A stretch of 64,000 nt of DNA. Origin: an uncultured Gammaproteobacteria bacterium. GTDB lineage: Bacteria; Patescibacteriota; Microgenomatia; UBA1406; GWC2-37-13. Position 1 is the stretch's first letter. Each line of letters starts with the position of its first letter. The DNA lies in NCBI GenBank assembly GCA_964490875.1, contig CAZBEF010000007.1:5241-69240 (forward strand). Reading direction: 5' to 3'. Both the position numbers and the translations under genes were made by a program. Below are positions 36,980 through 64,000 of this stretch, one piece after another. The notes beneath the pieces were generated by a model. It did no database searches, was not told the origin of the DNA, and worked only from the letters and a program-made list of their open reading frames with translations.

Positions 36980-37495
36980 ATGGACAAAAATGTCAAGATA
37001 GTAGATGATGAATATGGAAAGTTCTGGGAATATCTTTCTCAGAACCAGAAAGATCTGATTTTAGAAGGTAATTTCCTGATGAATGACATCATCCGGCACA
37101 CGGAATATTCATTTAAAGATTATTCGTTTATTATTTTCCCGTACGCAAAGGCATACGAAGGATTCTTAAAAAAATTATTTCTTGATTTGGATTATATTTC
37201 ACACTTAGATTATATATCAGATCATTTACGACTGGGAAAACTGATGGCGCCGCAGCTTATTGACCATTTAGGCGAAAAGTCCCTCTACAAAAAAATTAAA
37301 GAACATTCAACAAAAGAGACTGCCGATATGATCTGGGAAACATGGAAAGTAGGGCGCAACCAGGTTTTTCATTATTTTCCGCATAATACTCGCTATGTAA
37401 CATTTGGTGAAGCGCAGCTTACCGTGAATCGAATTATCTTGACAATGAAAGAGGCGTTTGAAAAATTATACAGTCCCGCCTCCGTTCCGACTTAA
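36980..37495 (+). CDS. hypothetical protein with an Rx4H (HEPN-like) motif
   Basis: 171-aa ORF with TATAAT-N6-ATG and the motif GRNQVFH near the C-terminus. The last 7 codons and the stop lie inside a repeat hairpin. Confidence 0.6.
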   Translation: MDKNVKIVDDEYGKFWEYLSQNQKDLILEGNFLMNDIIRHTEYSFKDYSFIIFPYAKAYEGFLKKLFLDLDYISHLDYISDHLRLGKLMAPQLIDHLGEKSLYKKIKEHSTKETADMIWETWKVGRNQVFHYFPHNTRYVTFGEAQLTVNRIILTMKEAFEKLYSPASVPT

Positions 37496-37524
37496 CCGAG
37501 AACTACGGCGGGCAAGCCGAAGTC
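37472..37524 (+). repeat. heptamer-flanked GC hairpin element (AGTCCCGCC..N..GGCGGGCAAGCCGAAGTC)
   Basis: agtCCCGCCtccgttccgacttaaccgagaactacGGCGGGcaagccgaagtc. It spans the stop codon of the upstream gene and precedes the ATPase start. Homologous to 38964-39025. Confidence 0.7.
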
Positions 37525-37538
37525 TTACTCAACATTAT

Positions 37539-40175
37539 ATGAAAGGCTTAACAACTCAGGAAGCAGAAAATCTGCTGAAACAATTTGGCCATAATCTGTT
37601 GGAACCGCCGAAAAAACCCGGTTTTATCGCGGTATTTTTTGGTCAGTTCAATAATTTTTTGTCGATTCTGCTTCTTATTGCGGCAGTGCTGGCAATCGGC
37701 ATCGGCGAAGCAGTTGATGGCAGCCTTATTCTGGCGATCGTTTTTTTAAATGCGTTATTTGGCGTATATCAGGAAAAAAAGGCCGAAGCGGCGATCGAAG
37801 CACTTTCTCAAATGAGTGTCACCAAAGTACGGGTACTTCGGGATGGTGAAGAACACGAAATTGACAGCCGTGATATTGTACCCGGCGATATTATTTATCT
37901 AGAAGAGGGGAGCAAAGTGGCGGCCGATGCGAAACTGATCCATGCCGTGCAGCTTGAAATGAACGAATCCGCTTTAACCGGAGAATCGTTGCCGGTTAGT
38001 AAAAAAAACGGCGATGAGATTTACATGGGAACGGTGGTTACACGAGGCCGCACCCACGCACAGGTTATCAATACCGGCGCCAATACCAAGTTTGGAGAAA
38101 TCGCTAAAAATTTATCGACAATCAAAGAACCCAAAACCCCGCTTCAGAAAAAATTGGAGTCTCTTACGAAAGCGATCGGATTAATCGGTATTGCCGCATC
38201 AGTGATTGTTTTCTTTTTGTCACGCGGCGACGGCACCAACCTTTTTGAAGCCTTTCTTCTGGCAGTCTCACTTGCGGTGGCTGTTGTTCCCGAAGGTTTG
38301 CCGGCTGTCCTTACTCTCACTCTCGCGATTGGGGTAAAGGAAATGGCCAAACGAAAAGCAATCGTCCGTAAATTATCGGCCGTAGAAACATTCGGAAGCG
38401 TTACCTTAATCTGTACCGACAAAACCGGAACGCTTACTACAAATAAAATGCAGGTCAAGGAATTATTTGTGAATAATCAGTTAAAATCGGTTGAAATCGG
38501 TCAAAGTCAGTTGGATTCAGCAACTAAAGAATTATTACACTGCAGCATTCTCTGTTCGACAGCTTCATTGGTTCCGGTGCAGGCTTCTTCAAAAAATATA
38601 GAGAAATCATTTGATGTACTAGGCGATCCCACCGAAGGTGCGCCGCTTATTCTCGCTGAAAAAATGGATATGCATGTAGAAGCCGTACGATCACAGTGGG
38701 AAACTACCGATGAAATGCCCTTTGATTCGGTAACGAAACGGATGTGGGTAGCGGTTAGTCCGAAGTCCGAAGTCGAAAGTCCCAAGCAGATGGTCTATGC
38801 AAAGGGGGCGCCGGAAAGTATTCTTTCAATATCAAGTCAAATCATGATTCATAACAAAGTTGAACCATTAACGGACGAGCGAAAAAAAGAAATTGAAAAA
38901 ACTTTAGAAGAGTGGGGAAGAAAAGGGCTCCGTGTTTTGGCATTTGCATATAAACCAGAAAATAGTCCGAAGTCCCGCCTTCGTCAAGACTTCGGCGGGC
39001 AAGCCGAAGTCCGAAGTCGGAAGTCTATAGATGATTTAATTTTTCTAGGAATGGTTGCGATTCATGATGCGCCCCGCCCCGAGGTAAACGAGGCTATTCG
39101 CAAAGCTCATATGGCTGGTATTAGTGTAGTAATGATTACCGGAGATAATGAGATAACCGCTCAGGCAATCGGTTCCTATGTAGGATTGTTAAAAGAAGGC
39201 GATGAAATTCTCAATGGTTCACAAGTTGAAAAATATACGGACGAAGAACTTATGGAAAAACTTCCTAAAGTCCGGATATTCGCCAGAACTACACCGTTTC
39301 ATAAACAACGGATTGTAGCGCTGTATCAAAAACTCGGAGAAGTTGTCGCAGTAACAGGTGACGGCGTGAATGACTCGATTGCGCTTAAACAGGCGGATGT
39401 CGGACTCGCGATGGGCGTTATTGGTACCGATGTTGCCCGTGAAGCGGCAGACATCGTAATCGCCGACGATAATTTTGCGACAATCGTAAATGCCATAGAA
39501 GAAGGCCGCAATATTATTAAAAATGTCAAGAATTCTATTATCTATCTCTTATCATGTAATATTGCCGAAGCGATGTCTTTAATCGGCGGCCTTATGCTTG
39601 GCCTGCCGCCATTATTTCTGCCCATTCAGCTTTTATATATCAATCTGGTAACCGATGGTGTACCGGCGCTTGCTTTAGCTTACAGCCCTCATGAAGAACG
39701 CCTCATGAAACAAGGACCTAAAAAATCCATGACTCTTCTTGAAAAGCCCGATTTTATCCGCATATTTCTCCAGGGTTTTTTTGCAACGGTGTTTGTGTTT
39801 ATAGCTTATTATTTCTACCGATATCAGATGCATCTAGCCGATCAACCGCCGGACACATGGCATAATGTGGGGGCGACAGCCGCGTTTACCGTTCTTGCAC
39901 TAATACAGTCATTTATTTTTCTTGATACCTGGCTTGAACACCGCTGGTTTTTTAAACATATACCAAGGTTGAAGTCTAAAATTTTCTGGATTGCGTTTGT
40001 TATTCCATTTATCGCCCAAGCGGCTATTTTGTATATTCCATCGGCCGAATTGTTGTTTAAAGTTGTTCACCTGAATCCATTTGATTTTGTTATGCTTACC
40101 GGTTTTTCATCCTTCATTTTGGTATTTTTATCGTTCGTTCGGCTGAAACATTCCCATTTATCTTCAAAAGAATAA
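37539..40175 (+). CDS. P-type ATPase, type II (Ca2+-ATPase-like)
   Basis: ICTDKTGTLT, PEGLPAV (TM4), TGDN and GDGVNDS motifs. The N-terminus LTTQEAENLLKQFGHN is typical of Cation_ATPase_N. The start was moved to MKGL; the track start at 37458 overlaps the upstream gene and a repeat. Confidence 0.9.
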   Translation: MKGLTTQEAENLLKQFGHNLLEPPKKPGFIAVFFGQFNNFLSILLLIAAVLAIGIGEAVDGSLILAIVFLNALFGVYQEKKAEAAIEALSQMSVTKVRVLRDGEEHEIDSRDIVPGDIIYLEEGSKVAADAKLIHAVQLEMNESALTGESLPVSKKNGDEIYMGTVVTRGRTHAQVINTGANTKFGEIAKNLSTIKEPKTPLQKKLESLTKAIGLIGIAASVIVFFLSRGDGTNLFEAFLLAVSLAVAVVPEGLPAVLTLTLAIGVKEMAKRKAIVRKLSAVETFGSVTLICTDKTGTLTTNKMQVKELFVNNQLKSVEIGQSQLDSATKELLHCSILCSTASLVPVQASSKNIEKSFDVLGDPTEGAPLILAEKMDMHVEAVRSQWETTDEMPFDSVTKRMWVAVSPKSEVESPKQMVYAKGAPESILSISSQIMIHNKVEPLTDERKKEIEKTLEEWGRKGLRVLAFAYKPENSPKSRLRQDFGGQAEVRSRKSIDDLIFLGMVAIHDAPRPEVNEAIRKAHMAGISVVMITGDNEITAQAIGSYVGLLKEGDEILNGSQVEKYTDEELMEKLPKVRIFARTTPFHKQRIVALYQKLGEVVAVTGDGVNDSIALKQADVGLAMGVIGTDVAREAADIVIADDNFATIVNAIEEGRNIIKNVKNSIIYLLSCNIAEAMSLIGGLMLGLPPLFLPIQLLYINLVTDGVPALALAYSPHEERLMKQGPKKSMTLLEKPDFIRIFLQGFFATVFVFIAYYFYRYQMHLADQPPDTWHNVGATAAFTVLALIQSFIFLDTWLEHRWFFKHIPRLKSKIFWIAFVIPFIAQAAILYIPSAELLFKVVHLNPFDFVMLTGFSSFILVFLSFVRLKHSHLSSKE
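38757..38783 (+). repeat. (AGTCCGA)n heptamer array in-frame in the P-type ATPase
   Basis: agtccga agtccga agtcgaa agtccc encodes SPKSEVESPK. Confidence 0.85.
38964..39025 (+). repeat. heptamer array plus GC hairpin element in-frame in the P-type ATPase
   Basis: agtccga agtCCCGCCttcgtcaagacttcGGCGGGcaagccga agtccga agtcgga agtc encodes SPKSRLRQDFGGQAEVRSRKS, just before the HDAPRPE (DPPR-type) motif. Confidence 0.85.
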
Positions 40176-40382
40176 TTTTTTCAGTCCGGTAGATTCTGTC
40201 AATCGCTCTATTATATATTACATCGCTTGATACCCGTTTTTCGGGGCACCGACACCCTAGTCAGGAGGGGCACCCTCGGTGACACCCTCAAAACGGATAT
40301 CTGCGCTCCTGTTTGCCCCGCGAAGTTTCAACGAAGTGGGGCCACCTGCCAGACTAGAATTAAAAGATGCTTATAGATCTGA

Positions 40383-40388
40383 TATAAT
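40383..40388 (+). promoter_or_regulatory. -10 box TATAAT, 6 nt upstream of ATG 40395
   Basis: gaTATAATcataaaATG, with TTAAAA 17 nt upstream. Confidence 0.5.
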
Positions 40389-40394
40389 CATAAA

Positions 40395-41234
40395 ATGAAA
40401 CAGAAGGAATCGATTTTTTTAAGGCAGTATCTTCCCCTTATTCTTACGTTCGTGATTTTTATACTCTTGTCAATAGTTTTATACCTAGAAATTATCGCGC
40501 TGAATAAATTCTCCCGCGAAGACATTCTCACACAAATACACTGGGGCGATATTATTGTGGGAACTACCATCTATTTAAAAACATCAGTAGATTTTGCAAT
40601 TTTCATCGGCAATCTCATGTCTGTCTACCCAGGATGGAAGAACAGGGTTGCAATTGAGATCGGCACCGCGGTGGGGAATGCGGTCGGCACCATGGCTGTT
40701 TTGGCAATCTGGAGCTTTTTTAAAGAGGTAGAATGGCTTTTGGCAATCATGATCTTTATTGCCGCGCTGGTTCTTCTCCGTTTAGCGCAGGACGGTGTAG
40801 AACATGCCAAAGAAGATCTGCATCATGCTGGCGGAATACTGGGTAAAGCCGTCGATATTCTTGAGAGAATATTGGTTGCTATAAATAAACTAGTAAATCC
40901 GATCTTAAAGTACATTATTCCGCATACTTCGATGAAAGCTTCCGGCAAAAAAACTTTGTTTGGAGTGTTTTTAATGTCATTTACGATACCTTTTATTCTC
41001 GGTCTCGATGATTTCGCCGGATATGTGCCGCTGTTTAACATAGTTAATGTGTTCGGTTTCTCCATCGGAGTTTTGGCCGGGCATATGATTTTAAATGCAT
41101 TTTTGTTTGTTTCTCCAAACAAAACTATTGCGATCGTTAAGAATTCGATAGTTTCATTTTTGGGAAGTCTGGCGTTTATTGCGCTTGCGATCTGGGGATT
41201 CTGGGAAGTTTATAAGCTGCTTTTTCTTCATTAA
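40395..41234 (+). CDS. multi-pass membrane protein, possible CadD/LysE-like transporter
   Basis: 279 aa with about 7 hydrophobic segments. The paired motifs TSVDFAIFIGN and GLDDFAGYVPLF resemble the two half-motifs of the CadD family. TATAAT-N6-ATG. Confidence 0.55.
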   Translation: MKQKESIFLRQYLPLILTFVIFILLSIVLYLEIIALNKFSREDILTQIHWGDIIVGTTIYLKTSVDFAIFIGNLMSVYPGWKNRVAIEIGTAVGNAVGTMAVLAIWSFFKEVEWLLAIMIFIAALVLLRLAQDGVEHAKEDLHHAGGILGKAVDILERILVAINKLVNPILKYIIPHTSMKASGKKTLFGVFLMSFTIPFILGLDDFAGYVPLFNIVNVFGFSIGVLAGHMILNAFLFVSPNKTIAIVKNSIVSFLGSLAFIALAIWGFWEVYKLLFLH

Positions 41235-41304
41235 TAATCGACCTTAGTCATAAAATATCAGATGGTGTATAATAACTATAGGATTTTAATGGTTATCTTC
41301 TACT

Positions 41305-42695: not shown

Positions 42696-44621
42696 TTACA
42701 AACGTGACTTTACTGCTTTTACGATTGCGGCAGAATCAATTCCTTCATACTCCATAAGCTCTGCTGGTGAACCGGAATGCGGAATAGCCTGGGCACATAA
42801 ATGGCTGACAGCAACCGGCTTTGATATTTCTTTCGCGAAGGTAGACAAAACATTCTTTACTGCTTCACCAATTCCGCCGGCCGGATAATGATCTTCGACA
42901 ATAATCACGTGTCCGGATTTTTTAGCCTGAGCAATAATAGTTTTTTCATCAATTGGTTTTACGGAGTACAGATCTACAACCGCAACCTTAATATTTTTCT
43001 GTGATAGTTCGTTATATGCTTTTAAGGCTTCATGAACTGTTATTCCAGCTGCAAAAATCACTGCGGAGTCTGTCGAACTTTCATACAGAACTTTGGATCC
43101 GCCAATCTGAAATGTATATTCCGGTTTATATAATGACTGTGTTTTTTCACGCGTAAGGCGAAGATAGACAATTCCTTCATGATTAAATGCTTGTTCTGTT
43201 AATTTTAATGTTGAAATTGGATCGGACGGATATAATACAACTGATTCCAGAATACTCCGCATCATTGAAATATCTTCCAATGCCATCTGCGAAGATCCAT
43301 CATAGCCGATCGAAACTCCGGCATGAGAACCGACAACTTTAATATTTGATTCGCTGTACTGTGCCATGCGGATTTGGTCAAACGCTCGTGTCAAAAATGC
43401 CGCAAAGCTTGACAAATAGGGAATGAAGCCTACCCGGGCCAGGCCGCAAGCAACACCAACCATATTCTGTTCGGCGATAAACATTTCAAAATAACGGTCG
43501 TGAAATTTCTTCGCGAATTTATCAGCATATGTAGAGTTAGAAGTCTCAGCATCGAGCACAACCAGGTTCGGATATTTTTCGCCCATCATAACTAATGCAT
43601 CGCCATACGCTTCGCGAGTAGCCGCTGGTTTGTCATAACTTATAGCTGATGGCTGATCGCTCATAGCTTGCAGATTTCGGACTTCGGACTTGCGACTTTC
43701 AACTAATTTCTCTGGTTTTTGAATTTCTGGTTTAATAGTTTTATTGACCTCGCCTAGTTCCCGAAGAGCCTGGTCCAGCATGTCTTTTGGCACCGGCTTG
43801 CCATGCCAGTCATCTTTGTTTTCAAGAAATGAAATTCCTTTTCCTTTCATGGTTTTGGCAATAATCATGGTCGGCTTTGTTCTATCAAGAGCCATATCAT
43901 TTGCTGCGCCGTAGATATTGGCATATGCCTGGCGGATTTTTTCTATCTCATGGCCGTCCCACAGAGTAATAACATTCCATCCAAAAGCTTTCACACGGTT
44001 TTCGTACGTCTGTAAATCCCAGGCGAGCATGGTTTCACCGCGCTGGCCCAAACGGTTCACATCCAAAATTCCCACCAGATTACTTGCTTTGTAATGTCCT
44101 GCAATCTCAAGCGCCTCATAAATTTGGCCTTCGGCAAATTCAGAATCACCAAGAAGAACAAATGTTTTTGGTAGGGATTGCTTCGTCGTTCCTCCTCGCA
44201 ATGACGTATCGTTTAATTTTAAATTCACCCCTAATGCAATTCCCAATCCGATAGAAAGCCCCTGGCCAAGCGAGCCGGTGGCTGCTTCGGTATATTTGAA
44301 TTTTGGCGTTGGATGGCCTTCTAAATTGGAATCAAATTTGCGAAGAGTCATCAGTTCATCATAAGAAATTGCTCCTGCAACTTGATAGAGCGAATAGAAG
44401 AGGGGAGACGCATGGCCTTTTGAGAAAATAATACGGTCGTTGAGAATATTGTCTGGATTCTCAAAATCATATCGGTAATATCCGCCATACATAAGTGTCG
44501 CCATCAGTTCTACTGCAGAAAGGGAAGAAGTCGGGTGCCCCGATCCTGCCGCTGTGGAAGATGTGAGAATGTCATAGCGGAGAAGTTTACTAAATTCCTG
44601 AAGTTCTTTGGTAGTTATCAT
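42696..44621 (-). CDS. tkt: transketolase (fused N- and C-terminal halves)
   Basis: GHPTSSLS, GSLGQGL, LLGDSEFAEGQ and C-terminal pyrimidine-binding/transketolase-C-like regions. The start at MITTKEL is supported by TTGACG-N17-TACCAT-N7-ATG. The track TTG start lies inside the -35 box. Confidence 0.9.
   Translation of the reverse strand: MITTKELQEFSKLLRYDILTSSTAAGSGHPTSSLSAVELMATLMYGGYYRYDFENPDNILNDRIIFSKGHASPLFYSLYQVAGAISYDELMTLRKFDSNLEGHPTPKFKYTEAATGSLGQGLSIGLGIALGVNLKLNDTSLRGGTTKQSLPKTFVLLGDSEFAEGQIYEALEIAGHYKASNLVGILDVNRLGQRGETMLAWDLQTYENRVKAFGWNVITLWDGHEIEKIRQAYANIYGAANDMALDRTKPTMIIAKTMKGKGISFLENKDDWHGKPVPKDMLDQALRELGEVNKTIKPEIQKPEKLVESRKSEVRNLQAMSDQPSAISYDKPAATREAYGDALVMMGEKYPNLVVLDAETSNSTYADKFAKKFHDRYFEMFIAEQNMVGVACGLARVGFIPYLSSFAAFLTRAFDQIRMAQYSESNIKVVGSHAGVSIGYDGSSQMALEDISMMRSILESVVLYPSDPISTLKLTEQAFNHEGIVYLRLTREKTQSLYKPEYTFQIGGSKVLYESSTDSAVIFAAGITVHEALKAYNELSQKNIKVAVVDLYSVKPIDEKTIIAQAKKSGHVIIVEDHYPAGGIGEAVKNVLSTFAKEISKPVAVSHLCAQAIPHSGSPAELMEYEGIDSAAIVKAVKSRL
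43676..43700 (-). repeat. (AGTCCGA)n heptamer array in-frame in tkt
   Basis: The reverse complement agtcgca agtccga agtccga encodes SRKSEVRN in the inter-domain linker. Confidence 0.8.
44175..44206. mobile_element. solo family B-type arm (ggattgcttcgtcgttcctcctcgcaatgacg) in-frame in tkt
   Basis: The reverse complement cgtcattgcgaggaggaacgacgaagcaatcc has the cgtca + hairpin arm layout. It encodes TSLRGGTTKQSL within transketolase. Confidence 0.55.
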
Positions 44622-47159: not shown

Positions 47160-48311
47160 TCATCTTGTCACCTGGTAGCTTTTTACGGTTTCCAGAAGTT
47201 TTTTGGCTTCGGCATTCTCTTCGAAATGCTTGCGCACCGGCTGAAGAAGTTCATCAAGCAGTTTAATAACAGTCTGTTTCAAATCCATCGGATGAAGCGA
47301 TTTGTCGGCGTACAATTTTTCCAGTTCTTCATACGACTTAATTTCCAGATTTCCACCAAATTTCTCCGGACGTTCGACTTTAAAGTCCGAAGTCGAAAGT
47401 CCGAAGTCCGAAGCGTCTTCAAGTGCAGGGAAGATGATGTATTTACAGTATTCCAGAACCGGATTTTCTTTAATTTCTCCCTCCGGAGCCCAGGCTTTGG
47501 ATATTTTCCGTTTAATATCTTCTCTCGTATCCGTCATAAATATTGCCGAATCCGGGTGGGACTTCGACATTTTAAGAGCAATTGTTCGGGAAATTTTGTC
47601 ATTTCTGGTTGAACTGTTTTCTGGATCCTTCGCTCCGCTCAGGATGACATCTTGTCCAGATGGTTTCTGCAAACCCATAAGCATATGATGGCTCACTACA
47701 ACCGGTTTCCAGTATCCAAGCATTGGCCCAATTTCGCGGGCGAGCATATTCACTTTCCGCTGATCCATCCCAAGCTGGGTAATTTTAGCTCCAAGGAGAA
47801 ATATATCAGCACACTGCATGCATGGGTAAATAATCTGCGCGGCGGTTAAGTCCATGCTTTCTTCGCGGCCCATAATTTCTGCCGTCCGAATAAACCGTTT
47901 CAGCGAATTTGTTTTCGCAATCTGGAGAACCAGTTTCCAGTAGCTGTCTTTTTTTACGTAATCCGAGGCCCAGTGGAATTCTACATTCGTAAGATCCATT
48001 CCGCATGCTTTCCAGACTTCAATAAAATATTTTCCGACAGTCTGAATTTTTTCCAAGTCGCCGCCCATTTTATTGTTGGCCCAGGCATGCCAGTCGGCAA
48101 CCCACATCTTAAAAGTCACGCCTGCCTTTGTCATTTTATTGACATTAATTGCTTTGAGAAGTCCTTGCGCAATATGAATCTGCCCCGAAGGTTCGAAGCC
48201 GTCGTAGGCAATAATTTTTTCGTTGGAAGAAAGAAGGGCGGTAAGGTCTTCTGTTGTAATTATTTCTTCACCGACTTGCTGAATAAGTTTTATTTTTTCC
48301 TGCAGATCCAT
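47160..48311 (-). CDS. tyrS: tyrosyl-tRNA synthetase, archaeal/eukaryotic-type
   Basis: AYDGFEPSGQIHIAQG (HIGH region), KMSKS, and C-terminal RPEKFGGNLEIKSYEELEKLY..LHPMDLK, which closely resembles M. jannaschii-type TyrRS as I recall it. TATAAT-N6-ATG. Confidence 0.9.
   Translation of the reverse strand: MDLQEKIKLIQQVGEEIITTEDLTALLSSNEKIIAYDGFEPSGQIHIAQGLLKAINVNKMTKAGVTFKMWVADWHAWANNKMGGDLEKIQTVGKYFIEVWKACGMDLTNVEFHWASDYVKKDSYWKLVLQIAKTNSLKRFIRTAEIMGREESMDLTAAQIIYPCMQCADIFLLGAKITQLGMDQRKVNMLAREIGPMLGYWKPVVVSHHMLMGLQKPSGQDVILSGAKDPENSSTRNDKISRTIALKMSKSHPDSAIFMTDTREDIKRKISKAWAPEGEIKENPVLEYCKYIIFPALEDASDFGLSTSDFKVERPEKFGGNLEIKSYEELEKLYADKSLHPMDLKQTVIKLLDELLQPVRKHFEENAEAKKLLETVKSYQVTR
47373..47415 (+). 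repeat. (AGTCCGA)n heptamer array in tyrS, antisense to the gene
   Basis: agtccga agtcgaa agtccga agtccga on the + strand. The gene is on the - strand, so it reads SDFGLSTSDFK. Confidence 0.85.
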
Positions 48312-48399: not shown

Positions 48400-49929
48400 A
48401 TGTATCAAATGGATAATTCACAAAATCAACCGGAACCACCTGCATCCAGCAGTCCATCTTTATCAGATATTTCTGCAGGGAATCCTGTATCTTCGCCTGT
48501 CGACACAACTATAGAATCCAAACCGTTAAGCCAGTCCGATATTTTTCCTTCGTCCGAACCTCAAGCGCCAGTACAATCTTCTCCTCCTCCTGTTTCTTCT
48601 GAACCTGCTGGGCCAGCTCCAGAACAACCAAGTATACCGCCCGTTGAATCAACACCGCCTTCCGTTGGTGAACCGCCAGTACCGCCTCCGCCTCCTCCAA
48701 CACCTCCAGCTATACCTTCGAAAGGCCAGAATAACAAACGGATTGCAATAATTGCCATGATGCTCATTTTCATGTCAGCAATTTTTGCACTCACATTGGT
48801 CTTCCGTTCGACAAAGTTCACAACACAAAATGAAGCAACAACTCCTTCAACCTGTACGTTATATAACACGAATATCGTTTTAGTTATTGACCGTTCCAGT
48901 ACAATGACTCAAAAAGAGTCGGACGGCAGGTCGAAACTAGAATGGGCTAAACAGTCGGCAAAAACACTGGTGTCACGAATCGCTTCTATGACCGGCGCTA
49001 CCGCAAAAATCAGCGTTATTTCGTTCGGAGCGCAGGGGAATGACGGAACAGGTACTCTTTCATCTGATAATAATTCTACTGTTCATATTAGTTTGAGTTC
49101 AGACTTAAATGCGGTTCAAACTGCAATTGATGGAGTCAAATATATTAAGTCGGGTACTTGTATTGAATGCGGAATCCGTCTTGCTAATCAACAGCTAGCT
49201 GCAACAGCATTGAATAGAGTAGTTATTTTACTTTCCGATGGAAAGGCCAATCATGATTGGTTGGGAAAAAGCGCCAATAGTACGGGTGCAATCAATTTTG
49301 CAAATACCGGAAGAAGTTCGGGTATTGTGTACTATGTTCTGGGGTACGGAGTAGGTTCGCAGATAGATGAAACAACATTAAAAGCCATAGCAGGCAAAGC
49401 AGAAAATTATAAATATAAACCAGATGCCACCTCATGGCCGGAAGCGTTCTTAAGCATTGTCGACTTAATCTGTGCATTACCAACTGCTACTCCTACGAAA
49501 ACACCCACGCCTACTCCAACAAAAACGCCTACACCGACACCTACAAAAACACCAACACCATTGCCAACCAAGACGCCTACTCCAACACTAACTAAGACAC
49601 CAACGCCAACGCCTACCAAAACACCGACACCATCACCTACAAAAACGCCGACTCCATCTCCAACAAAAACGCCTACACCGACACCTACAAAAACACCAAC
49701 ACCATTGCCAACCAAGACGCCAACACCTTTACCCACAAAAACACCAACACCTACAACGACATCCACACCAGTGCCAACAAAAACACCCACGCCGTCACCC
49801 ACCAAGACACCAACACCAACTCAAACCTTAACCCCATCGCCAACATCAACCATCACACCGACGCCAACCATGTGTACCGTTCCTAAGGCTGTAACGAATG
49901 TTAAAGTAAGTTGTCCGTTATGTAAGTAA
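48400..49929 (+). CDS. membrane-anchored vWA-domain protein with long TKTPTPxP repeat tail
   Basis: Pro-rich N-terminus, one TM segment, MIDAS-like [11 protein letters not shown] and a vWA-like fold pattern, about 14 repeats of an 8-aa PT unit, and a Cys-containing C-terminus. Confidence 0.8.
49480..49870 (+). repeat. coding tandem repeat, 24-nt period (TKTPTPxP), ~14 units with a 144-nt higher-order duplication
   Basis: Lies in frame in the vWA gene. aaaacgcctacaccgacacctacaaaaacaccaacaccattgccaaccaagacgcc occurs twice, 144 nt apart. Confidence 0.85.
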
Positions 49930-49933: not shown

Positions 49934-50869
49934 ATGAAAAAGAAACAGAGAATATTAATACTATCCATATTCACAGTAGTCATACTTATTGGCTTAGTCG
50001 TGGCTCTGTATTTACTGCGGGCTCCGCAAACGACGGTAAATCGAGCTACAACAGAACCAATGTGTCCTGCCAACGGCGCCTCATGTTCTTGGGACAGTGA
50101 CGGTAGTGCAACCTCATTCAAAGTAGAAGTTGTTGACGAAAATACCGGCAATACCATCTTAACCACGACAACATCAAATAAAGCTGTACAATTTACGCCG
50201 ATTCCGAATCATAAATATACGTGTAATGTTACGCCGATAAATTCATGCGGAGAAGGACCTGCGGCAACCGCTTCGAATATATGTATTCCAGAAGCTACAC
50301 CGACAAATACACCGTCGCCTTCACCAACCTTAACCCCGACGCCAACCGTTATTGCGTGCCAGCAGCCGAGCACCTGCATGACAGAAGAAGCATGTACATC
50401 ATCCGGAGGAAAAACAAATGGGGAGCGCTGCGAAACCGAAGGTACAATTTGTTGTGTGCCTGCAGAAAGTACACCGACACCAACTCCAACCGAGACGCCT
50501 GTACCTACGGCAACCTACACCCCAACACCAACTGCTACCCCAACACCGATCCCAACCTATACTCCTGTGCCAACATACACGCCGATTCCAACCTATACGC
50601 CATATCCTACCTACACGCCGTTCCCGTCTGCAACACCGACAGTGCTGCCAACCGCAACCCCATACCCAACCTATACACCGCAGCCAACATTTACATCAGC
50701 GCCAACACCCACACCAACAGAAATTGTGATTGCGGTAAATAATACAAACACGCCAACACCAACTCGTGAAGGTACAGCAGTGCCTACAATTCCATCAGCA
50801 GGTATTCCGGTGGCATGGTACGTAATCTTTATTCCTCTGGCGCTTCTTGCTCTAGGGATGGTATTTTAG
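49934..50869 (+). CDS. membrane-anchored Fn3-like/Cys-rich/PT-rich surface protein
   Basis: Starts 4 nt after the previous stop. N-terminal TM segment, Fn3-like segment ([26 protein letters not shown]), PT-rich linkers, and a C-terminal IPSAG followed by a hydrophobic tail. Confidence 0.75.
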
Positions 50870-59025: not shown

Positions 59026-59511
59026 TTATCTTCTTGAGTTGCCGCTTCTTCTTCGGGCAGCTTCTAGATCGGCTTGTACTTGTTGTTCATACATATCAAT
59101 TGCTGGAGTTGTTAATATCTGTTGGGTTTCTTTATCTTTTCTTGTTGGTGTACTTTTTAGAAACGCTATAAATTCTGCCTGATCTGGATGCACTAGTGCA
59201 AGCTCCTGTATTATTTCATCCGCATTTGGCTGGCCGGTAATTAATCTAACCTTCTTAATTATTGCAAGTCTTGCTTCATGAATATTTTTAGGACCATTTT
59301 GTCTTAATTTTTCTGCATCTATTTGAGTTAAGCTTGCTGATAAAGTTGCAATAGAATCTGTTGCGGGTAAATCAAATCCATGATTTTGAAATGACTGCAT
59401 ACGCATATCTATACCGGTAGCAAGAAATGCTAATTCTGACCGGCTAATTTGCGGGAGTTGTTCTTTTTGTGACACTCCCTCTTGACTTTGTGTTTCTGCG
59501 CCTGTTGACAT
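59026..59511 (-). CDS. hypothetical protein (161 aa)
   Basis: ORF convergent with the previous gene. No domain recognised. Confidence 0.5.
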   Translation of the reverse strand: MSTGAETQSQEGVSQKEQLPQISRSELAFLATGIDMRMQSFQNHGFDLPATDSIATLSASLTQIDAEKLRQNGPKNIHEARLAIIKKVRLITGQPNADEIIQELALVHPDQAEFIAFLKSTPTRKDKETQQILTTPAIDMYEQQVQADLEAARRRSGNSRR

Positions 59512-59617
59512 ACATGTTTATAAATTGATATATGAATATAAAATACGCATACAGTGTGATAATTGAGAGATAGCTGCGAAAGAGTTGTGCAAGAAGGACG
59601 CGCTGTTTCATTTCGCA

Positions 59618-59645
59618 TTGCAATCCATGTATTTCCTGATATACT
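59618..59645 (+). promoter_or_regulatory. candidate promoter TTGCAA-N16-TATACT giving a ~185-nt leader for the RRM gene
   Basis: caTTGCAAtccatgtatttcctgaTATACTtattc. Confidence 0.4.
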
Positions 59646-59836
59646 TATTCAGTATTATCGTGTTTCGTATTGTCGTTAGACATCGGAGCGGAAATTTTTG
59701 ATTTTTGTGAAAGATTTTTTTTCAAGCGTTTCATTGCAAGTCGCATACAATTTATCTTCTTATAAAGCTTCAGGTATCCGTACTTATTTTTCTGCTATTA
59801 ATCGTTTATCAATTCGCTCGAAGGGGGTGAGTGTAC

Positions 59837-60205
59837 ATGAATAAAAAGTTATATGTTGGTAATTTGCTATACGAAGTTACCGACGATGAATTATCTCAGT
59901 TATTTTCCCAAGCAGGTACTGTTACTTCTGCTCAGGTAATCCGATATCAAGACACCGGACGCTCAAAAGGCTTCGGTTTCGTTGAGATGTCAACTGAAGA
60001 AGAAGCTCAGAAAGCAATCGATATGTTTAACGGCCAGGACAATAAAGGCCGCAAACTCGTTGTTTCTGAAGCACGACCTATGCAGCCAAGAACTCCAGGT
60101 GGCGGCGGTGGATACCGACGCGGTGGAGACCGAGGTGGTCGCGGTGGTTATGGTGACCGTGGCGGCCGAGGCGGCGATATGGGTGGAGATATGGGAAATA
60201 TGTAA
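59837..60205 (+). CDS. RRM-type glycine-rich RNA-binding protein
   Basis: RNP2 LYVGNL, RNP1 KGFGFVEM and a RGG/GGY-rich tail. SD GGGGGTGA lies upstream of the ATG at 59837. A terminator follows. Confidence 0.9.
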   Translation: MNKKLYVGNLLYEVTDDELSQLFSQAGTVTSAQVIRYQDTGRSKGFGFVEMSTEEEAQKAIDMFNGQDNKGRKLVVSEARPMQPRTPGGGGGYRRGGDRGGRGGYGDRGGRGGDMGGDMGNM

Positions 60206-60230
60206 AAACTATTTCGCATTAGAAATAAAA

Positions 60231-60272
60231 AACGGCAGGTATGTTTCGCAAGAAACCCCCTGTCGTTTTTTT
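60231..60272 (+). terminator. intrinsic terminator after the RRM gene
   Basis: ACGGCAGG-N17-CCTGTCGT stem (one G-U pair) followed by TTTTTTT. Confidence 0.7.
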
Positions 60273-60275
60273 ATA

Positions 60276-60671
60276 TGTCATCCTGATCCGCCTTTGGCGG
60301 AGAAGGATCCAGTAAAATAAAGTATGCCTTCAAAGAACTACTTTGTATATATCCTTGCAAGTAAAAGAAATGGAACTCTATATATTGGAGTAACATCAGA
60401 TCTTATTAAACGTGCATGGGAACACAAGAATTCTATAGTAGAAGGATTTACTAAGAAGTACAAAATAGATCTCCTGGTATATTATGAACAATTTATAGAC
60501 GTAAATCAGGCAATAGCTCGAGAGAAGTATCTTAAAGGAAAAAATAGAAAATTTAAGTTAGGTCTTGTTGAAGAAAAAAATTCTCAATGGGAAGATTTAT
60601 ATGATAAGTTAATTTAATAATTCTGGATTCTTTGCTTCGCCAAGTCAGACTTGGCTTCGCTCAGAATGACA
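60276..60671 (+). mobile_element. family B arms bracketing the GIY-YIG gene (candidate full-length/autonomous element, 396 bp)
   Basis: Left arm 60276-60312 is tgtcatcctgatccgcctttggcggagaaggatccag. Right arm 60623-60671 is ctggattctttgcttcgccaagtcagacttggcttcgctcagaatgaca. The arm termini are the same as in the 85-bp copy in tgt. The CDS fills the interior, with spacers of 11 nt and 5 nt. Confidence 0.65.
60324..60617 (+). CDS. small GIY-YIG nuclease superfamily protein (97 aa)
   Basis: YFVYILASKRNGTLYIGVTSDLIKRAWEHK..GFTKKY..LVYYE..AIAREKYLK matches the short GIY-YIG (COG2827-like) pattern. It is bracketed by inverted repeat arms. Confidence 0.85.
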   Translation: MPSKNYFVYILASKRNGTLYIGVTSDLIKRAWEHKNSIVEGFTKKYKIDLLVYYEQFIDVNQAIAREKYLKGKNRKFKLGLVEEKNSQWEDLYDKLI

Positions 60672-60676
60672 AAGCA

Positions 60677-60713
60677 TGTCATCCTGAGGGAACGAAGTGA
60701 CTGAAGGATCCAG
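60677..60713. mobile_element. additional solo left arm of family B abutting the tgt stop codon
   Basis: tgtcatcctgagggaacgaagtgactgaaggatccag. It ends 2 nt before the tgt stop (60716-60718). Confidence 0.6.
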
Positions 60714-60715
60714 AA

Positions 60716-62068
60716 TCAATAATACCGCAGATATTCGGCCTTTAATTCTCCGAACCGGTTTACGGGAATTGCCTGCCGGATTTCTTCCATTAAATCGGCG
60801 AAGAATTGAATGTTGTGAACTGTTGCATAGAAAAATGAGCGCGGATCTTTCTGCAGAAATAATTCGTACAATTGCTGCCCCGTGATTTTTTGACTGCATG
60901 CGATACACTTACAATCTATTGCGATCGGTTCATTTTGCGTCTTTATTTTCTTGACGGCAATTCTTCCCCGTTTGGTATACAGCATTTTATGCCGAGCTTC
61001 GCGGGTAGGAATAACGCAGTCAAACAGGTCGACGCCGCGTTCAACACCTTCAAAAATGTCGTCTACTTGTCCGATTCCCAGCAAATGTCTTGGTTTCTCG
61101 TTAGGCAGATGGGGCATAATCCATTCCAGAACCTGATGCATATTTTTTTTGCTGTCGCCAAAGCTGTTGCCGAAACTGCCGCCGATTCCAAAACCGGGAA
61201 CGTCGTGTTTGGCACACAGTTTGGCGGATTTTATTCGCAAGTCCTGCCATTCACTGCCTTGGACGATGGCAAATAATGCTTGGGGATTTTTCGTCATTGG
61301 TATTTGTTTGTCATCCTGATCCCGATAGCCATCGGGAGAAGGATCCAGGGCATTAACGTTTATTCTGGATTCTTCGCTTCGCTCAGAATGACAAGAGAGA
61401 AGTTTATGTTTTGTGATACACCTTTCCAGCCAGCGGTCCGTTAATTCAACCGATTTAGAAACGTATTCTTTCGAATTGAACGGCGAAGTGCATTCATCGA
61501 AGGCAAACATTATATCGGCGCCAATCTGGTGCTGCAGTTCCATAGAAAGTTCCGGTGTCAGCGTTCTTTCTTCATCACTTGCCCCGTCGAAGTCCCGACC
61601 GGAGGTAGGGGACGAAGAGGGGTTCCAGCGAAAAGTAACTCCTTCTTCGGTAATAATCAGTGGATTATCGTCATCGTGACTTGTTACAGTAGAAGAATCG
61701 GGCTTAGCAAGTTTGCCAACCTTATGTGTTTTTCCAAATCCTAAAGAAAATACTTGGAATCCTCCTGAATCGGAAGCGACTATACCTGGGAAACCACCAT
61801 ATTCATGAACAGTCTTCGGACTTCGGACTTGTTTCTTCGGACTATCATGAATTTTTTCAATAATATTTTTCGTCCAAATGTGGAAGGTGTTTACTATGCT
61901 GTAGTTTAAGGGGAGTGTATGCGTTACACCAGGGGGAATGCCTTTTATTTGGCCTTCGGTGCCGACAATGGCAAGGGAAGGTGTGTGGAGTGTTCCGTGC
62001 GGTGTTTTGAATTCTCCAGTGCGCGCTTTAGTTTTGGCGTCCTGTGCAGTTAGTTTATATTCGAACAT
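60716..62068 (-). CDS. tgt: queuine tRNA-ribosyltransferase (tRNA-guanine transglycosylase) carrying in-frame repeat insertions
   Basis: TPHGTLHTPSLAIVGT, SDSGGFQVFSL, FDECTS, FAIVQGS, GFGIGG, LFDCVIPTR, zinc site CKCIAC..H and VHNIQFF. At 450 aa it is longer than the roughly 375 aa typical of bacterial Tgt. Confidence 0.9.
   Translation of the reverse strand: MFEYKLTAQDAKTKARTGEFKTPHGTLHTPSLAIVGTEGQIKGIPPGVTHTLPLNYSIVNTFHIWTKNIIEKIHDSPKKQVRSPKTVHEYGGFPGIVASDSGGFQVFSLGFGKTHKVGKLAKPDSSTVTSHDDDNPLIITEEGVTFRWNPSSSPTSGRDFDGASDEERTLTPELSMELQHQIGADIMFAFDECTSPFNSKEYVSKSVELTDRWLERCITKHKLLSCHSERSEESRINVNALDPSPDGYRDQDDKQIPMTKNPQALFAIVQGSEWQDLRIKSAKLCAKHDVPGFGIGGSFGNSFGDSKKNMHQVLEWIMPHLPNEKPRHLLGIGQVDDIFEGVERGVDLFDCVIPTREARHKMLYTKRGRIAVKKIKTQNEPIAIDCKCIACSQKITGQQLYELFLQKDPRSFFYATVHNIQFFADLMEEIRQAIPVNRFGELKAEYLRYY
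61309..61393. mobile_element. family B MITE (85 bp) inserted in-frame in tgt
   Basis: tgtcatcctgatcccgatagccatcgggagaaggatccag + ggcattaacgtttatt + ctggattcttcgcttcgctcagaatgaca. On the coding strand it reads SCHSERSEESRINVNALDPSPDGYRDQDDK. Compared with the arm at 60276, the inner hairpin shows compensatory changes (CCGCC/GGCGG versus CCCGAT/ATCGGG). Confidence 0.8.
61813..61843 (-). repeat. (AGTCCGA)n heptamer array in-frame in tgt
   Basis: The reverse complement agtccga agaaaca agtccga agtccga encodes SPKKQVRSPKT. Confidence 0.8.
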
Positions 62069-62076
62069 ACAGGTAG

Positions 62077-62082
62077 ATTATA
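62077..62082 (-). promoter_or_regulatory. -10 box TATAAT, 8 nt upstream of the tgt ATG
   Basis: Minus strand: gcTATAATctacctgtATG. Confidence 0.45.
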
Positions 62083-62124
62083 GCATTGGACAACGGACTA
62101 TTGATTCATCTGTTTAGTTACTAT

Positions 62125-62463
62125 TTAAAAGTTACATCCTTGTGGACATTTATGATCTGTGTGATCTGGTCTGTCAGTTACTGTGCAATATTCAAGATGT
62201 GGTTTACAAATTGCTCCACATACTACAGACGCAGCGTCCACATTGCGATGCGAATAGTTCATGAATAAACCATTCTTTATGGTTGGCGTTGGTACTTGAT
62301 TTTTTGAAATAGTTGTAACTAGTGCTACCAATAATTTCCCTATGTCAATAGCTCCAACAGGGATTCTTCTTTCATTCGTGATTACTGCTCCACCGGCCTG
62401 ATTAACTGGTTTTTCTTGAGTAGTAGCTGACTGTGTTATTTGTAATAATTCGCATGGAGGCAT
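62125..62463 (-). CDS. hypothetical small protein with Cys-rich C-terminus
   Basis: 112-aa ORF with the C-terminus CGAICKPHLEYC..HKCPQGC. It lies between a duplicated tgt promoter/5' fragment and the intact tgt gene. Confidence 0.4.
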   Translation of the reverse strand: MPPCELLQITQSATTQEKPVNQAGGAVITNERRIPVGAIDIGKLLVALVTTISKNQVPTPTIKNGLFMNYSHRNVDAASVVCGAICKPHLEYCTVTDRPDHTDHKCPQGCNF

Positions 62464-62520
62464 GGAATTTAAAAAAATTAGTAATTAATAAATCAGATCA
62501 TATTTTACTATAAGGTGTAA

Positions 62521-62548
62521 TTGAATTCAATTAGTGCTGAGAATGACT
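62521..62548. mobile_element. degenerate solo right arm of family B next to the duplicated tgt 5' fragment
   Basis: ttGAATTCaattagtgctgaGAATgact resembles ctGGATTC...gctcaGAATgaca. Confidence 0.4.
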
Positions 62549-62561
62549 AGGAAAGGATTAT

Positions 62562-62607
62562 GGAGTTCTGTGCAGTTAGTTTGTATTCAAACATTCCGTC
62601 CATTATA
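62562..62607 (-). repeat. duplicated tgt promoter plus first 9-10 codons (remnant)
   Basis: 62562-62594 matches 62036-62068 at 29/33 positions. It reads ATG TTT GAA TAC AAA CTA ACT GCA CAG (MFEYKLTAQ, the tgt N-terminus), then NSIILS-stop. It keeps TGgTATAAT (62602-62610) 7 nt upstream of the ATG. Confidence 0.75.
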
Positions 62608-62621
62608 CCAGGGAGGAAAAG

Positions 62622-62966
62622 TTACCAAGAGTGTGTTCCACAATAATGCATTACACCTTTATGTTCAAAACCAGGCACTCTACACTTTTCATGGCAAATA
62701 TCACAACGAATTGGACATTCGCCATCCGTCTCCATTGTTGTATCTTTACTGTTTTTTGAATGACTTGTAACAGAAATAAGATCCCGACTTTTTTTTATCT
62801 CAGGGGATTTTCTAGTTCCTTCTATCACTACTTTTGGATTCATGAGACTTAATAAAAATAGATGTACGATCATTCGGCCTTTATCTAAAGCAGGATCCTT
62901 TTTTTGTTCTGCAAGCGCAGTTATTTCTTTTGCAGGAAGTTGAGATTGGTTTGATTCAGCTGGCAT
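62622..62966 (-). CDS. hypothetical small protein with Cys/His-rich C-terminus
   Basis: 114-aa ORF with the C-terminus ECPIRCDICHEKC..HYCGTH. A TTGCCA-N16-TGgTACAAT promoter lies 24 nt upstream. Confidence 0.45.
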   Translation of the reverse strand: MPAESNQSQLPAKEITALAEQKKDPALDKGRMIVHLFLLSLMNPKVVIEGTRKSPEIKKSRDLISVTSHSKNSKDTTMETDGECPIRCDICHEKCRVPGFEHKGVMHYCGTHSW

Positions 62967-62990
62967 ATGTTGAAAATGAAATAGATTTAT

Positions 62991-63018
62991 ATTGTACCAA
63001 AGATCCTTGAAATGGCAA
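62991..63018 (-). promoter_or_regulatory. promoter TTGCCA-N16-TGgTACAAT upstream of ORF 62622-62966
   Basis: Minus strand: aaTTGCCAtttcaaggatctttggTACAAT, 24 nt upstream of the ATG. Confidence 0.5.
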
Positions 63019-63042
63019 TTAGAATGTTCTAGTAAGTCAACT

Positions 63043-63088
63043 AATAGAAAAGAATAGAGACCCTCCCGATAGGCGCATCGGGAGGGCC
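63043..63088 (-). terminator. intrinsic terminator after the Cys-rich peptide gene
   Basis: Minus strand: CCCTCCCGAT-gcgcct-ATCGGGAGGG (10-bp perfect stem), then tctctattcttttctatt. Confidence 0.7.
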
Positions 63089-63119
63089 AGTTGCTGCATG
63101 ATTCAGCTAATATCGATGC

Positions 63120-63239
63120 TTAGCACCGACACCAACTGCAAATCACGCAGTATCCGCAGCCAGGGCACGGTTTACAGCCATTAGTACAACGGCCAAGACT
63201 TACCCTTAAGAAGCGGATGCGCTCTTTGCGCTTGTCCAT
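63120..63239 (-). CDS. 39-aa cysteine-rich peptide MDKRKERIRFLRVSLGRCTNGCKPCPGCGYCVICSWCRC
   Basis: Not in the ORF track (shorter than 60 aa). Translated by hand from the minus strand. A strong SD (AAAGGAGGTG) lies 6 nt upstream of the ATG. An intrinsic terminator begins 31 nt after the TAA. Confidence 0.6.
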   Translation of the reverse strand: MDKRKERIRFLRVSLGRCTNGCKPCPGCGYCVICSWCRC

Positions 63240-63420
63240 GGAATTCACCTCCTTTCATAGAGGTGTGATCCCAGGTGACCCTGGAAATGACAAGCGATTT
63301 GTCATTTTGAGCCTCCTGTGCCTCTTCGGCTTCATAATTTTACTCCATAAAGACATTTATAACATACATAACGTTTATGTATAAATTCTTTCTTTCGTGA
63401 TAAATACTGCTGTGTTACAA

Positions 63421-63426
63421 TACAAT
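63421..63426 (+). promoter_or_regulatory. -10 box TACAAT, 7 nt upstream of the leuS ATG
   Basis: gtgttacaaTACAATtactcatATG. A second overlapping TACAAT lies at 63416-63421. Confidence 0.4.
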
Positions 63427-63433
63427 TACTCAT

Positions 63434-64000
63434 ATGAAAAAATATATTCCCTCCGAATTTGAACAGAAATGGGTGGATACATGGTTGAAAGAGAAGGTGT
63501 ATAGTCCGAAGTCCGAAGTCCGAAGTCTAAAGTCTGAAGTCGAAACTGTAAAGTCGGAGATGCAATATGTGTTGGTAATGTTTCCGTATCCTTCGGGTGC
63601 CGGGCTGCATGTGGGGCACGTCCGTGTATATACCGGCTCAGATGTGGTTGCCCGCTACTTCCGCATGATGGGGAAGCAGCTGCTGTTCCCGATGGGATGG
63701 GATGCATTCGGCCTGCCTGCCGAAAATGCAGCTATAAAAGCTAAAACAAATCCAAAAGAATTGGTGCCTCAATATATTGCCACCTTTAAGCGCCAGATTC
63801 AGATGCTGGGGTATTCGTACGACTGGGACCGCGAAATCGCCACTACAGACCCAAATTACTACAAATGGACTCAGTATCTGTTCATTGAATTCTTCAAAAT
63901 GGGTTTGTTGTACAAAAAAATGACGTCCGTATATTTCTGCGAATTCTGCAAAACCGGTTTGGCCGAAGAAGAAGTGTTACCAGATGGTAAACATGAACGC
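63434..64000 (+). CDS. leuS: leucyl-tRNA synthetase, 3'-partial
   Basis: Hand translation gives MKKYIPSEFEQKWVDTW..MFPYPSGAGLHVGHVRVYTGSDVVARY..PMGWDAFGLPAENAAIK..YDWDREIAT. The ORF is open to the window end. TACAAT-N7-ATG. Confidence 0.9.
   Translation, partial: MKKYIPSEFEQKWVDTWLKEKVYSPKSEVRSLKSEVETVKSEMQYVLVMFPYPSGAGLHVGHVRVYTGSDVVARYFRMMGKQLLFPMGWDAFGLPAENAAIKAKTNPKELVPQYIATFKRQIQMLGYSYDWDREIATTDPNYYKWTQYLFIEFFKMGLLYKKMTSVYFCEFCKTGLAEEEVLPDGKHER
63503..63558 (+). repeat. (AGTCCGA)n heptamer array (8 units) in-frame in leuS
   Basis: agtccga agtccga agtccga agtctaa agtctga agtcgaa actgtaa agtcgga encodes SPKSEVRSLKSEVETVKSE, just upstream of the PYPSG..HVGH region. Confidence 0.9.

Follow-up and report, generated by a model that had tools for sequence, protein, structure and literature searches.

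Heptanucleotide repeat arrays carried in frame by housekeeping genes of a Roizmanbacteria-like bacterium

Introduction

How does one 7-nt sequence come to stand, repeated head to tail and in frame, in five unrelated housekeeping genes? The question is raised by a 64,000-nt stretch of contig CAZBEF010000007.1 (positions 5,241 to 69,240; here called the window), whose source organism appears, by its named best hits, to be a bacterium of the candidate phyla radiation (CPR) close to Candidatus Roizmanbacteria. Within 26 kb of the window, six arrays of the unit AGTCCGA lie in frame in the genes of a P-type ATPase (two arrays), transketolase (tkt), tyrosyl-tRNA synthetase (tyrS), tRNA-guanine transglycosylase (tgt), and leucyl-tRNA synthetase (leuS). 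An initial, sequence-only reading of the window attributed them to a propagating sequence rather than to independent evolution of the proteins. We followed up this proposal by comparing the array sites with orthologues, with other Roizmanbacteria, and with distant genomes and viral contigs. We consider it fairly probable that the arrays are a dispersed heptanucleotide repeat, that is, selfish or neutral DNA that is tolerated and is filtered by reading frame and loop tolerance.

Results

Tandem Repeats Finder and direct reading located the two ATPase arrays and those of tkt, tyrS, tgt, and leuS no more than a few bases from the positions proposed from the sequence alone, with 3.7 to 8 head-to-tail units per array. 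The typical size is about 4 units (27 to 33 nt); the exception, in leuS, has 8 units. When we searched for two AGTCCGA units with at most 2 mismatches, the window gave 15 matches compared with 0.26 expected from 100 dinucleotide-preserving shuffles of the window, none of which scored as high, so tandem units exceed what composition predicts. Lone units outside the arrays showed no excess in the window (8 found and about 8 expected). An intact open reading frame (ORF) surrounds each of the six arrays, and every peptide quoted in the sequence-only reading was recovered among the translated ORFs. Five of the six arrays have the unit on the sense strand (giving the SPKSEVR reading); that of tyrS is antisense (SDFGLRT reading). 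An assembly artifact was ruled out by the intact ORFs, by a near-identical and independent second assembly (from the Joint Genome Institute; P0002) that encodes the identical TyrRS array peptide, and by the presence of arrays at the same sites in relatives from other assemblies.

The P-type cation ATPase gene (37539-40175, + strand; assigned by Pfam) holds two arrays. The first (38757-38786, +, sense) consists of four units, AGTCCGA AGTCCGA AGTCGAA AGTCCCA AG, and encodes SPKSEVESPK inside the nucleotide-binding (PF13246) region. The second (38964-39025, +) is split by a 30-nt hairpin at 38974-39003 into a left part (38964-38973, +; AGTCCGA AGT) and a right part (39004-39025, +; CCGA AGTCCGA AGTCGGA AGTC). 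In tkt (42696-44621, − strand; PDB homologue), about 3.7 sense units at 43672-43698 (−) encode SRKSEVRN. The archaeal/eukaryotic-type tyrS (47160-48311, −; PDB homologue) carries its array at 47382-47415 (+), antisense to the gene; on the gene-sense strand, it reads GC TTCGGAC TTCGGAC TTTCGAC TTCGGAC TTT, a 30-nt, 10-amino-acid (aa) insertion that encodes ASDFGLSTSDF before KVERPEKFGG. The tgt array (61812-61843, −, sense; gene at 60716-62068, −, PDB homologue) has four units, the second of which is degenerate, and encodes SPKKQVRSPK. Finally, the 5' part of leuS (63434-64000, +; assigned by Pfam and continuing past the window end) contains eight sense units at 63503-63558 (+), three perfect and five decayed, which encode SPKSEVRSLKSEVETVKSE directly before the PYPSG...HVGH motif.

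The arrays had been called "frame-proof." The property itself is real: three AGTCCGA units encode SPKSEVR, the reverse strand encodes SDFGLRT, and no frame of either strand contains a stop codon. Since 7 shares no factor with 3, a heptamer array yields the full cycle of seven codons whichever frame is read. We nevertheless rejected frame-proofness as a rare trait, since 8,260 of the 16,380 heptamers (about 50%) are stop-free in all six frames. Among relatives, intragenic arrays such as those of TTGAAAA are stop-free on the sense strand only, and a stop-free sense strand is the sole need of an intragenic array.

Next, we compared the array sites, all of which are variable among orthologues, with solved structures and with related genomes. 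Alignments with orthologues and PDB entries bore out the placement of the segments in apparently variable loops before the PYPSG/HIGH, SDSGGFQ, and RPEKFGG motifs. The Tgt array matches an 8-residue gap in the best-matching solved bacterial Tgt (10fb), a net gain of 8 aa, and the TyrRS array matches a 10-residue gap in solved structures (+10 aa). The tkt array falls where a variable linker joins the PP and Pyr domains, with no clear gap relative to solved structures. Using two syntenic Roizmanbacteria contigs (leuS-tyrS-tkt-ATPase; L121 and L126) for comparison, we found a net gain of 6 aa for ATPase array 1 relative to both orthologues, about 18 aa for ATPase array 2 plus its hairpin relative to L126, and up to 17 aa for the leuS array relative to L121 and L126. 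The closest available Tgt relative (P0121/L249; 69% identity) has EKIE-PKTVHEYGG where the window has EKIH-DSPKKQVRS-PKTVHEYGG, making the window protein 9 aa longer; the empty site of this relative reads ATAGAA/CCAAAAACA. There were no period-7 arrays in the 15 kb available from this relative (11.6 kb in L249 and 3 kb around tyrS in L124). In the AlphaFold model, the Tgt array segment is coil and includes a low-confidence stretch (predicted local distance difference test [pLDDT] score below 50 at residues 79 to 81).

The description of the arrays as inserted holds only as a net gain in length relative to orthologues; no filled and empty pair was found that is similar enough to delimit the insertion or a target duplication. 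The proposal that the sequence propagates was supported, as orthologues have either no such segment or other heptamers in the corresponding position. Because one unit occupies six sites in five unrelated genes, independent protein evolution is excluded as the source of the arrays.

We then sampled 168 kb from nine Roizmanbacteria loci. The sample contained 27 period-7 arrays compared with 0.4 in shuffles, while all other periods from 4 to 15 together gave 3. Nearly all (24/27) were inside long ORFs, and the arrays occupied genes that also carry them in the window (leuS, tyrS, tkt, and others), with lengths of approximately 17 to 42 nt and most at 24 to 33 nt. At the tyrS site, five genomes have 30-nt arrays (four units plus 2 nt) in the same codon register, built from ACTTCGG in the window, AATTCGA in L123, and GCTACAA in L121, L126, and L128; further relatives have a decayed version or nothing. 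Units were more alike within genomes than between them (mean distance of 1.61 versus 2.98; permutation P < 0.0002), also when the window was left out (2.39 versus 2.85; P = 0.02). The arrays are thus not the mark of one odd element in one genome: heptamer arrays of many other units occupy the same genes in the relatives, and AGTCCGA arrays span phyla.

Two further features of the relatives were noted. In L121 and L126, genes for a Y-family polymerase (IMS) and an S24 peptidase (LexA/UmuD-like) adjoin the ATPase-tkt-tyrS cluster, downstream of the ATPase; neither gene was found at the corresponding place in the window. Many Roizmanbacteria Tgt proteins (P0131, P0135, P0143, P0156, P0188, and others) have inserts of about 35 aa, such as WKVDLENKNQPSSFQPQNLSSSFY, that resemble inverted pairs of heptamer arrays (foldback elements). 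These inserts occupy two loops, sometimes both in one protein.

To look beyond the CPR, we scanned a collection of species-representative genomes for exact (AGTCCGA)3; the figures given here are for the matches listed. The sequence was present in more than 120 stretches from many phyla, among them Verrucomicrobiota, Bacteroidota, Acidobacteriota, Myxococcota, Planctomycetota, Elusimicrobia, and Chloroflexi, as well as in a Kerfeldbacteria genome, Moorena, Brucella, Pedobacter, and Nocardia. Many copies were in frame (in genes for UvrA, AlaRS, an AddB-like helicase-nuclease, a protein kinase, adenylate cyclase, and FtsX), and outside ORFs the array sizes varied widely, from 3 to 17 units. Four units was the commonest size, both overall (53/119 arrays) and in long ORFs (34/58). 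In the 50 ORF cases that could be scored for orientation, 33 arrays were sense and 17 were antisense. The loci with an (AGTCCGA)3 array, 844 kb in total, contained 81 further period-7 arrays of many units, compared with at most 27 arrays for any other period, whereas an unrelated control set of 482 kb had no period-7 array. Carrying heptamer arrays is therefore a trait of particular genomes. In viral contigs, we obtained 11 matches to (AGTCCGA)3 and 30 to (AATCCGA)3; four composition-matched control heptamers, also stop-free in six frames, gave 1, 1, 2, and 3. Several distant genomes (L027, L032, L054, and L095) have AGTCCGA arrays as inverted pairs 50 to 150 nt apart, and unlike arrays often adjoin in distant genomes, for example, AGTCCGA beside GGCCTGA, CTTCCGT, TTACCGA, or TGACGAA. 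A literature search for the array sequence and its peptides found no paper, and a search with a synthetic (SPKSEVR)6 protein was uninformative (4 matches among 980 candidates).

The hairpin that splits ATPase array 2 turned out to belong to a family. Its copy in the array (38974-39003, +) is 30 nt long, CCCGCC TTCGTCAAGACTTC GGCGGG CAAG, and is translated as RLRQDFGGQA; excising exactly these 30 nt gives back a perfect, in-register array. The other window copy lies at 37472-37524 (+), a stretch that had been read as an array at the 5' junction of the ATPase gene. It is instead a hairpin element flanked by one split AGTCCGA unit, AGTCC-CGCC...(26-nt loop)...GGCGGG-CAAGC-CGAAGTC, with the core CCCGCC...GGCGGGCAAGCC. 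This copy stands just 5' of the ATPase ATG (37539) and provides the ORF at 36980-37495 with its final residues and stop codon. Both window copies have AGTCCCGCC...GGCGGGCAAGCCGAAGTC in common, each pattern occurring twice where 0.01 to 0.02 occurrences are expected. Altogether, we recognized seven copies of 30 to 42 nt in at least four organisms. The family pattern is CCCRCC-TYC-stem-TWC-GGYGGG-CAAG, in which an outer stem of 6 bp is separated by a 3x3 internal loop from a variable inner stem and CAAG forms the tail. Compensation is seen once in the outer stem, as a GC-to-AU double change, and the inner stem covaries (UA/CG and GC/AU). Of the seven copies, four lie within protein-coding genes and one more overlaps a gene at its 3' end.

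Outside the window, a metagenome scan with a 19-mer of the hairpin gave 74 matches, 71 of which were chance matches in GC-rich coding DNA. The only true copies (L171, L173, and L190) come from an organism of 67 to 69% GC and lie within AGTCCGA arrays, breaking the unit where it is also broken in the window. Two other Roizmanbacteria carry the hairpin without an array, as a 30-nt in-frame insert in Tgt that encodes RLHQDFGGQA; the flanks of such array-free hairpins are unrelated to AGTCCGA. Because the hairpin stands alone in these two genes, it is a separate small element, associated with the arrays but not dependent on them. We considered and rejected its identity as a repetitive extragenic palindrome (REP) or a REP doublet (REPIN), since it is preceded by AGTC, TTTA, or TGGG, not GTAG/CGTC, and is mostly intragenic.

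The hairpin also offers a rival account of the arrays, namely, that the 30-nt element seeds them or lands in them and is mobilized in trans, for example, by a hairpin-recognizing HUH/IS200-605- or RAYT-like enzyme. AGTCC/CGAAGTC ends would be either part of the element or its target, and units left behind on its loss would act as seeds for expansion. The sequence common to the two window copies, the exact 30-nt length of the ATPase copy and the array register that its removal restores, the identical insertion point in a GC-rich organism, the solitary Tgt inserts, and the compensatory and covarying stem changes all fit such an element. However, there is no hairpin near four of the six window arrays or near the 120 cross-phylum loci listed, the relatives' arrays of other units occur without it, the flanks of array-free copies do not resemble the unit, and no transposase gene was identified. 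We regard hairpin seeding as quite unlikely.

Several other small repeats occur in this region. A palindromic element of about 88 nt, resembling a miniature inverted-repeat transposable element (MITE), is in frame in tgt (61307-61394, −; TTGTCATTCTGAGCGAAGCGAAGAATCCAG...GGGATCAGGATGACAA) and encodes CHSERSEESRINVNALDPSPDGYRDQDDK in a low-confidence loop; a related second copy lies just downstream of tgt at approximately 60620-60700. A transketolase loop, NDTSLRGGTTKQS (approximately 44170-44200, −), is the translation of a small GC-rich element, ACGTCATTGCGAGGAGGAACGACGAAGCAATCCC, and in the same loop, L123 has heptamer arrays and L126 has an ILRHPELGSGS-type segment. An inverted pair 14.5 kb apart (34493-34522 and 49016-49045; CGTCATTCCCGCGGACGCGGAAATC / ...GGAGCGCAGGGGAATGACG) probably represents copies of another small palindromic repeat family of the GTCATTCC type. 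A VWA-domain protein (48400-49929) has as its C-terminal part long Pro/Thr-rich repeats with a 24-nt period (TPTPTKTP...; 49477-49880 and 50285-50712), which continue into the next ORF. The first 36 kb of the window is without any AGTCCGA array, all arrays being among the conserved housekeeping genes of the last 27 kb. Positions 1-36000 are occupied by an internally repetitive ORF of 2,822 aa (41-8509) and four tandem paralogous giant genes (13214-34010; 1,544 to 1,983 aa each).

Discussion

The arrays in the window are, in our view, fairly probably tolerated copies of a dispersed repeat. Within this lineage, the AGTCCGA family would have spread from site to site through copying or conversion rather than through separate slippage at each, since a roughly 10-fold preference among 1,170 unit classes cannot give six identical arrays out of six. 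Copies would persist only where they are harmless, which would call for a position in a variable loop, a unit free of stops on the sense strand, and a net length divisible by 3. The persisting copies would be translated as low-complexity loops, in five of the six arrays with the hydrophilic SPKSEVR reading, and would later decay by point mutation. Slippage in unit number would be restrained, because only 3-unit changes keep the reading frame. The separate 30-nt hairpin mini-element would travel in or beside the arrays. We infer the copying or conversion step and its enzyme, the translation of the arrays, and their lack of function.

A number of observations weigh against this explanation. Relatives such as L126 and L121 have several unrelated units within one genome; therefore, genome-wide unit homogeneity is no general rule, and the window may lie at the extreme. 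At the tyrS site, the neighbor-joining tree of TyrRS is too star-like to separate one old insertion with unit turnover from repeated insertions, and the FPAL flank common to array-bearing TyrRS proteins hints at common descent. The TyrRS array segment is modeled confidently (AlphaFold pLDDT of about 93) and is therefore not simply a floppy loop. The net insertions (+6, +6, +9, +10, and up to +17 aa) match neither 3-unit slippage nor 4-unit pasting cleanly. No insertion event has been caught, and the difference between filled and empty sites is known as net length only. A TTCATGA repeat flanks the tgt array, a single case with nothing comparable at the other arrays; we rejected it as a target-site duplication, with the closest relative being too diverged to fix the boundaries. 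Finally, no candidate enzyme for the spread was identified in the 64-kb window.

A bolder version of the idea supposes that trans-acting machinery with an intrinsic 7-nt step, present in scattered lineages, writes or overwrites chromosomal tracts of approximately 28 to 30 nt (four heptamers), including in essential genes, with the unit set by a genome-specific template. We consider this unlikely. The machinery might be a templated polymerase, a reverse transcriptase, or a recombinase. If it exists, it would explain why genomes have many heptamer arrays or none and why units are alike within a genome, as well as the equal-length tyrS arrays of different units and the occurrence of AGTCCGA/AATCCGA and the nested hairpin from the CPR to GC-rich soil bacteria. 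A tRNA T-loop origin, Chi sites, and 7-bp recombinase overlaps were considered as sources of the 7-nt step and set aside, as no data supported them.

An alternative to copying between sites is independent replication slippage: each array would arise at its own site, the polymerase footprint would favor heptamers, and a mutational or selective preference for NNTCCGA would select the unit, with no exchange among sites. Period 7 is the sole inflated period in Roizmanbacteria and at the cross-phylum loci, pointing to an intrinsic 7-nt step, and the polymerase hypothesis, put forward by Mrazek, is quoted in the literature (PMC4692102). In viral contigs, NNTCCGA arrays are 6 to 17 times commoner than matched controls, so that some units seem intrinsically favored. 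The predominance of four units in long ORFs (34/58, among the matches listed) would correspond to one old unit plus three frame-keeping ones, and the empty tgt site of the closest relative (CCAAAAAC) is partly like the unit. Yet a preference of this size falls short of six identical arrays, relatives carry other units at the same sites, and the net insertions differ from 7 aa. The division into genomes with many heptamer arrays and genomes with none also suggests a lineage-specific factor over universal slippage, and we find slippage alone decidedly unlikely.

We likewise doubt, more strongly, that the arrays act at the nucleic acid level, either as regulator binding sites of four heptamers each or as structured or slowly translated mRNA segments. 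Four-heptamer elements of Geobacter metallireducens have been proposed as global regulatory sites (PMC2700814), arrays of four units are more frequent than any other size here and across phyla (among the matches listed), and array sizes cluster at 24 to 33 nt. These regularities are offset by the different units found at the same site in close relatives, by decay through point mutation (leuS and tgt), and by the occurrence of both orientations. Furthermore, neither array strand folds better than shuffled sequence (z = +1.3 and −0.7), and an Rfam search of the arrays gave no match. A role of this kind is very improbable.

We give hardly any credence to adaptive peptides, such as charged, flexible SPKSEVR loops that aid tRNA binding in LeuRS, TyrRS, and Tgt: three of the five host proteins do bind tRNA and the hydrophilic, basic reading prevails (5/6 window arrays and 33/50 scorable cross-phylum ORF cases among the matches listed), but the ATPase and transketolase are not tRNA binders, TyrRS has the opposite reading (SDFGLST), the closest relatives lack the segments while others have unrelated peptides at the same site, and nucleotide identity across unrelated genes implies an origin at the DNA level. 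Phase variation was rejected because the host genes (those of LeuRS, TyrRS, Tgt, transketolase, and the P-type ATPase) are essential; the arrays, moreover, are short and decayed. Like phase-variable contingency simple sequence repeats (SSRs), they are short tandem coding repeats with a unit that is not a multiple of three. Unlike those repeats, they reside in essential housekeeping genes and not in surface or restriction-modification genes, and on/off switching is implausible because a change of one unit would inactivate an essential enzyme.

As a dispersed repeat, the window arrays belong to the same general class as the cyanobacterial short tandemly repeated repetitive (STRR) sequences and heptameric SSRs, the latter reportedly treated by Mrazek et al. 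in 2007 as "heptameric SSRs / LSSR5-11." They have in common the tandem 7-nt units, the dispersal of a single unit family over many arrays in a genome, a strong excess specific to period 7, a predominance of four units, and occasional inverted pairs. Unlike these known repeats, the window arrays are in frame in core housekeeping genes of a CPR bacterium, the AGTCCGA unit is common to many phyla, and orthologous sites have different units in different genomes.

Ogata et al. are said to have described, in 2000, the Rickettsia palindromic elements (RPEs) as selfish repeats in frame in conserved protein genes. RPEs are palindromes of approximately 100 to 150 bp found in genes that include those of aminoacyl-tRNA synthetases, where they are kept in surface or variable regions of the protein, in a reduced genome with little intergenic space. 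The window arrays are similar in being in frame in conserved genes, aminoacyl-tRNA synthetase genes included, with the host ORFs left intact and orthologues lacking the insertion, and in occurring in a reduced genome of this kind. They differ from RPEs in being direct, nonpalindromic repeats of about 30 nt without a stable fold; an RPE- or MITE-like architecture is seen only in the nested hairpin and the tgt palindrome (61307-61394). In Nostoc punctiforme, Elhai et al. (2008) reportedly found small dispersed repeats (SDRs), small hairpins nested in heptamer arrays. Our hairpin is alike in its very small size, its compensatory changes, and its nesting in heptamer arrays (ATPase copy 2, L171, L173, and L190). 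Unlike SDRs (21 to 27 nt), it measures 30 to 42 nt, is found in the CPR and a GC-rich soil/sediment organism rather than in Nostocales, and is translated where it lies in genes.

Overrepresentation of heptameric SSRs in bacteria has been known for decades, with its origin unexplained; examples are GGGAATC in Xanthomonas, where the heptamer repeats favor four units, and GGGGAYT in Nostoc (PMC4692102). G. metallireducens has a four-unit GGACCGG element at 49 intergenic and intragenic sites (PMC2700814), and the window arrays resemble it in occurring within genes. STRR, Xanthomonas, and Nostoc repeats, in contrast, are mainly intergenic, whereas all six window arrays and 24 of the relatives' 27 are in long ORFs. 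AGTCCGA, unlike the G-rich heptamer repeats, is not G-rich, so a G-quadruplex rationale does not apply. Relative to these systems, the new features are the CPR setting with arrays that are almost exclusively intragenic and in core genes, the occupation of one orthologous site by arrays of equal length but different units, an AGTCCGA/AATCCGA family that spans phyla, and a conserved composite of hairpin and array.

The window and its relatives form an unusually clean system, as period 7 is almost the sole class of tandem repeat, reading frame constrains nearly every array, and orthologous sites have equal-length arrays of different units. Together, these features make copying versus slippage, and the idea of an enzyme with a 7-nt step, testable. 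In this Roizmanbacteria-like CPR genome, nearly all DNA is coding. Within core CPR enzymes, the tracts would introduce low-complexity loops peculiar to a lineage; they inflate the apparent divergence of these proteins and can mislead alignment, phylogeny, and structure prediction.

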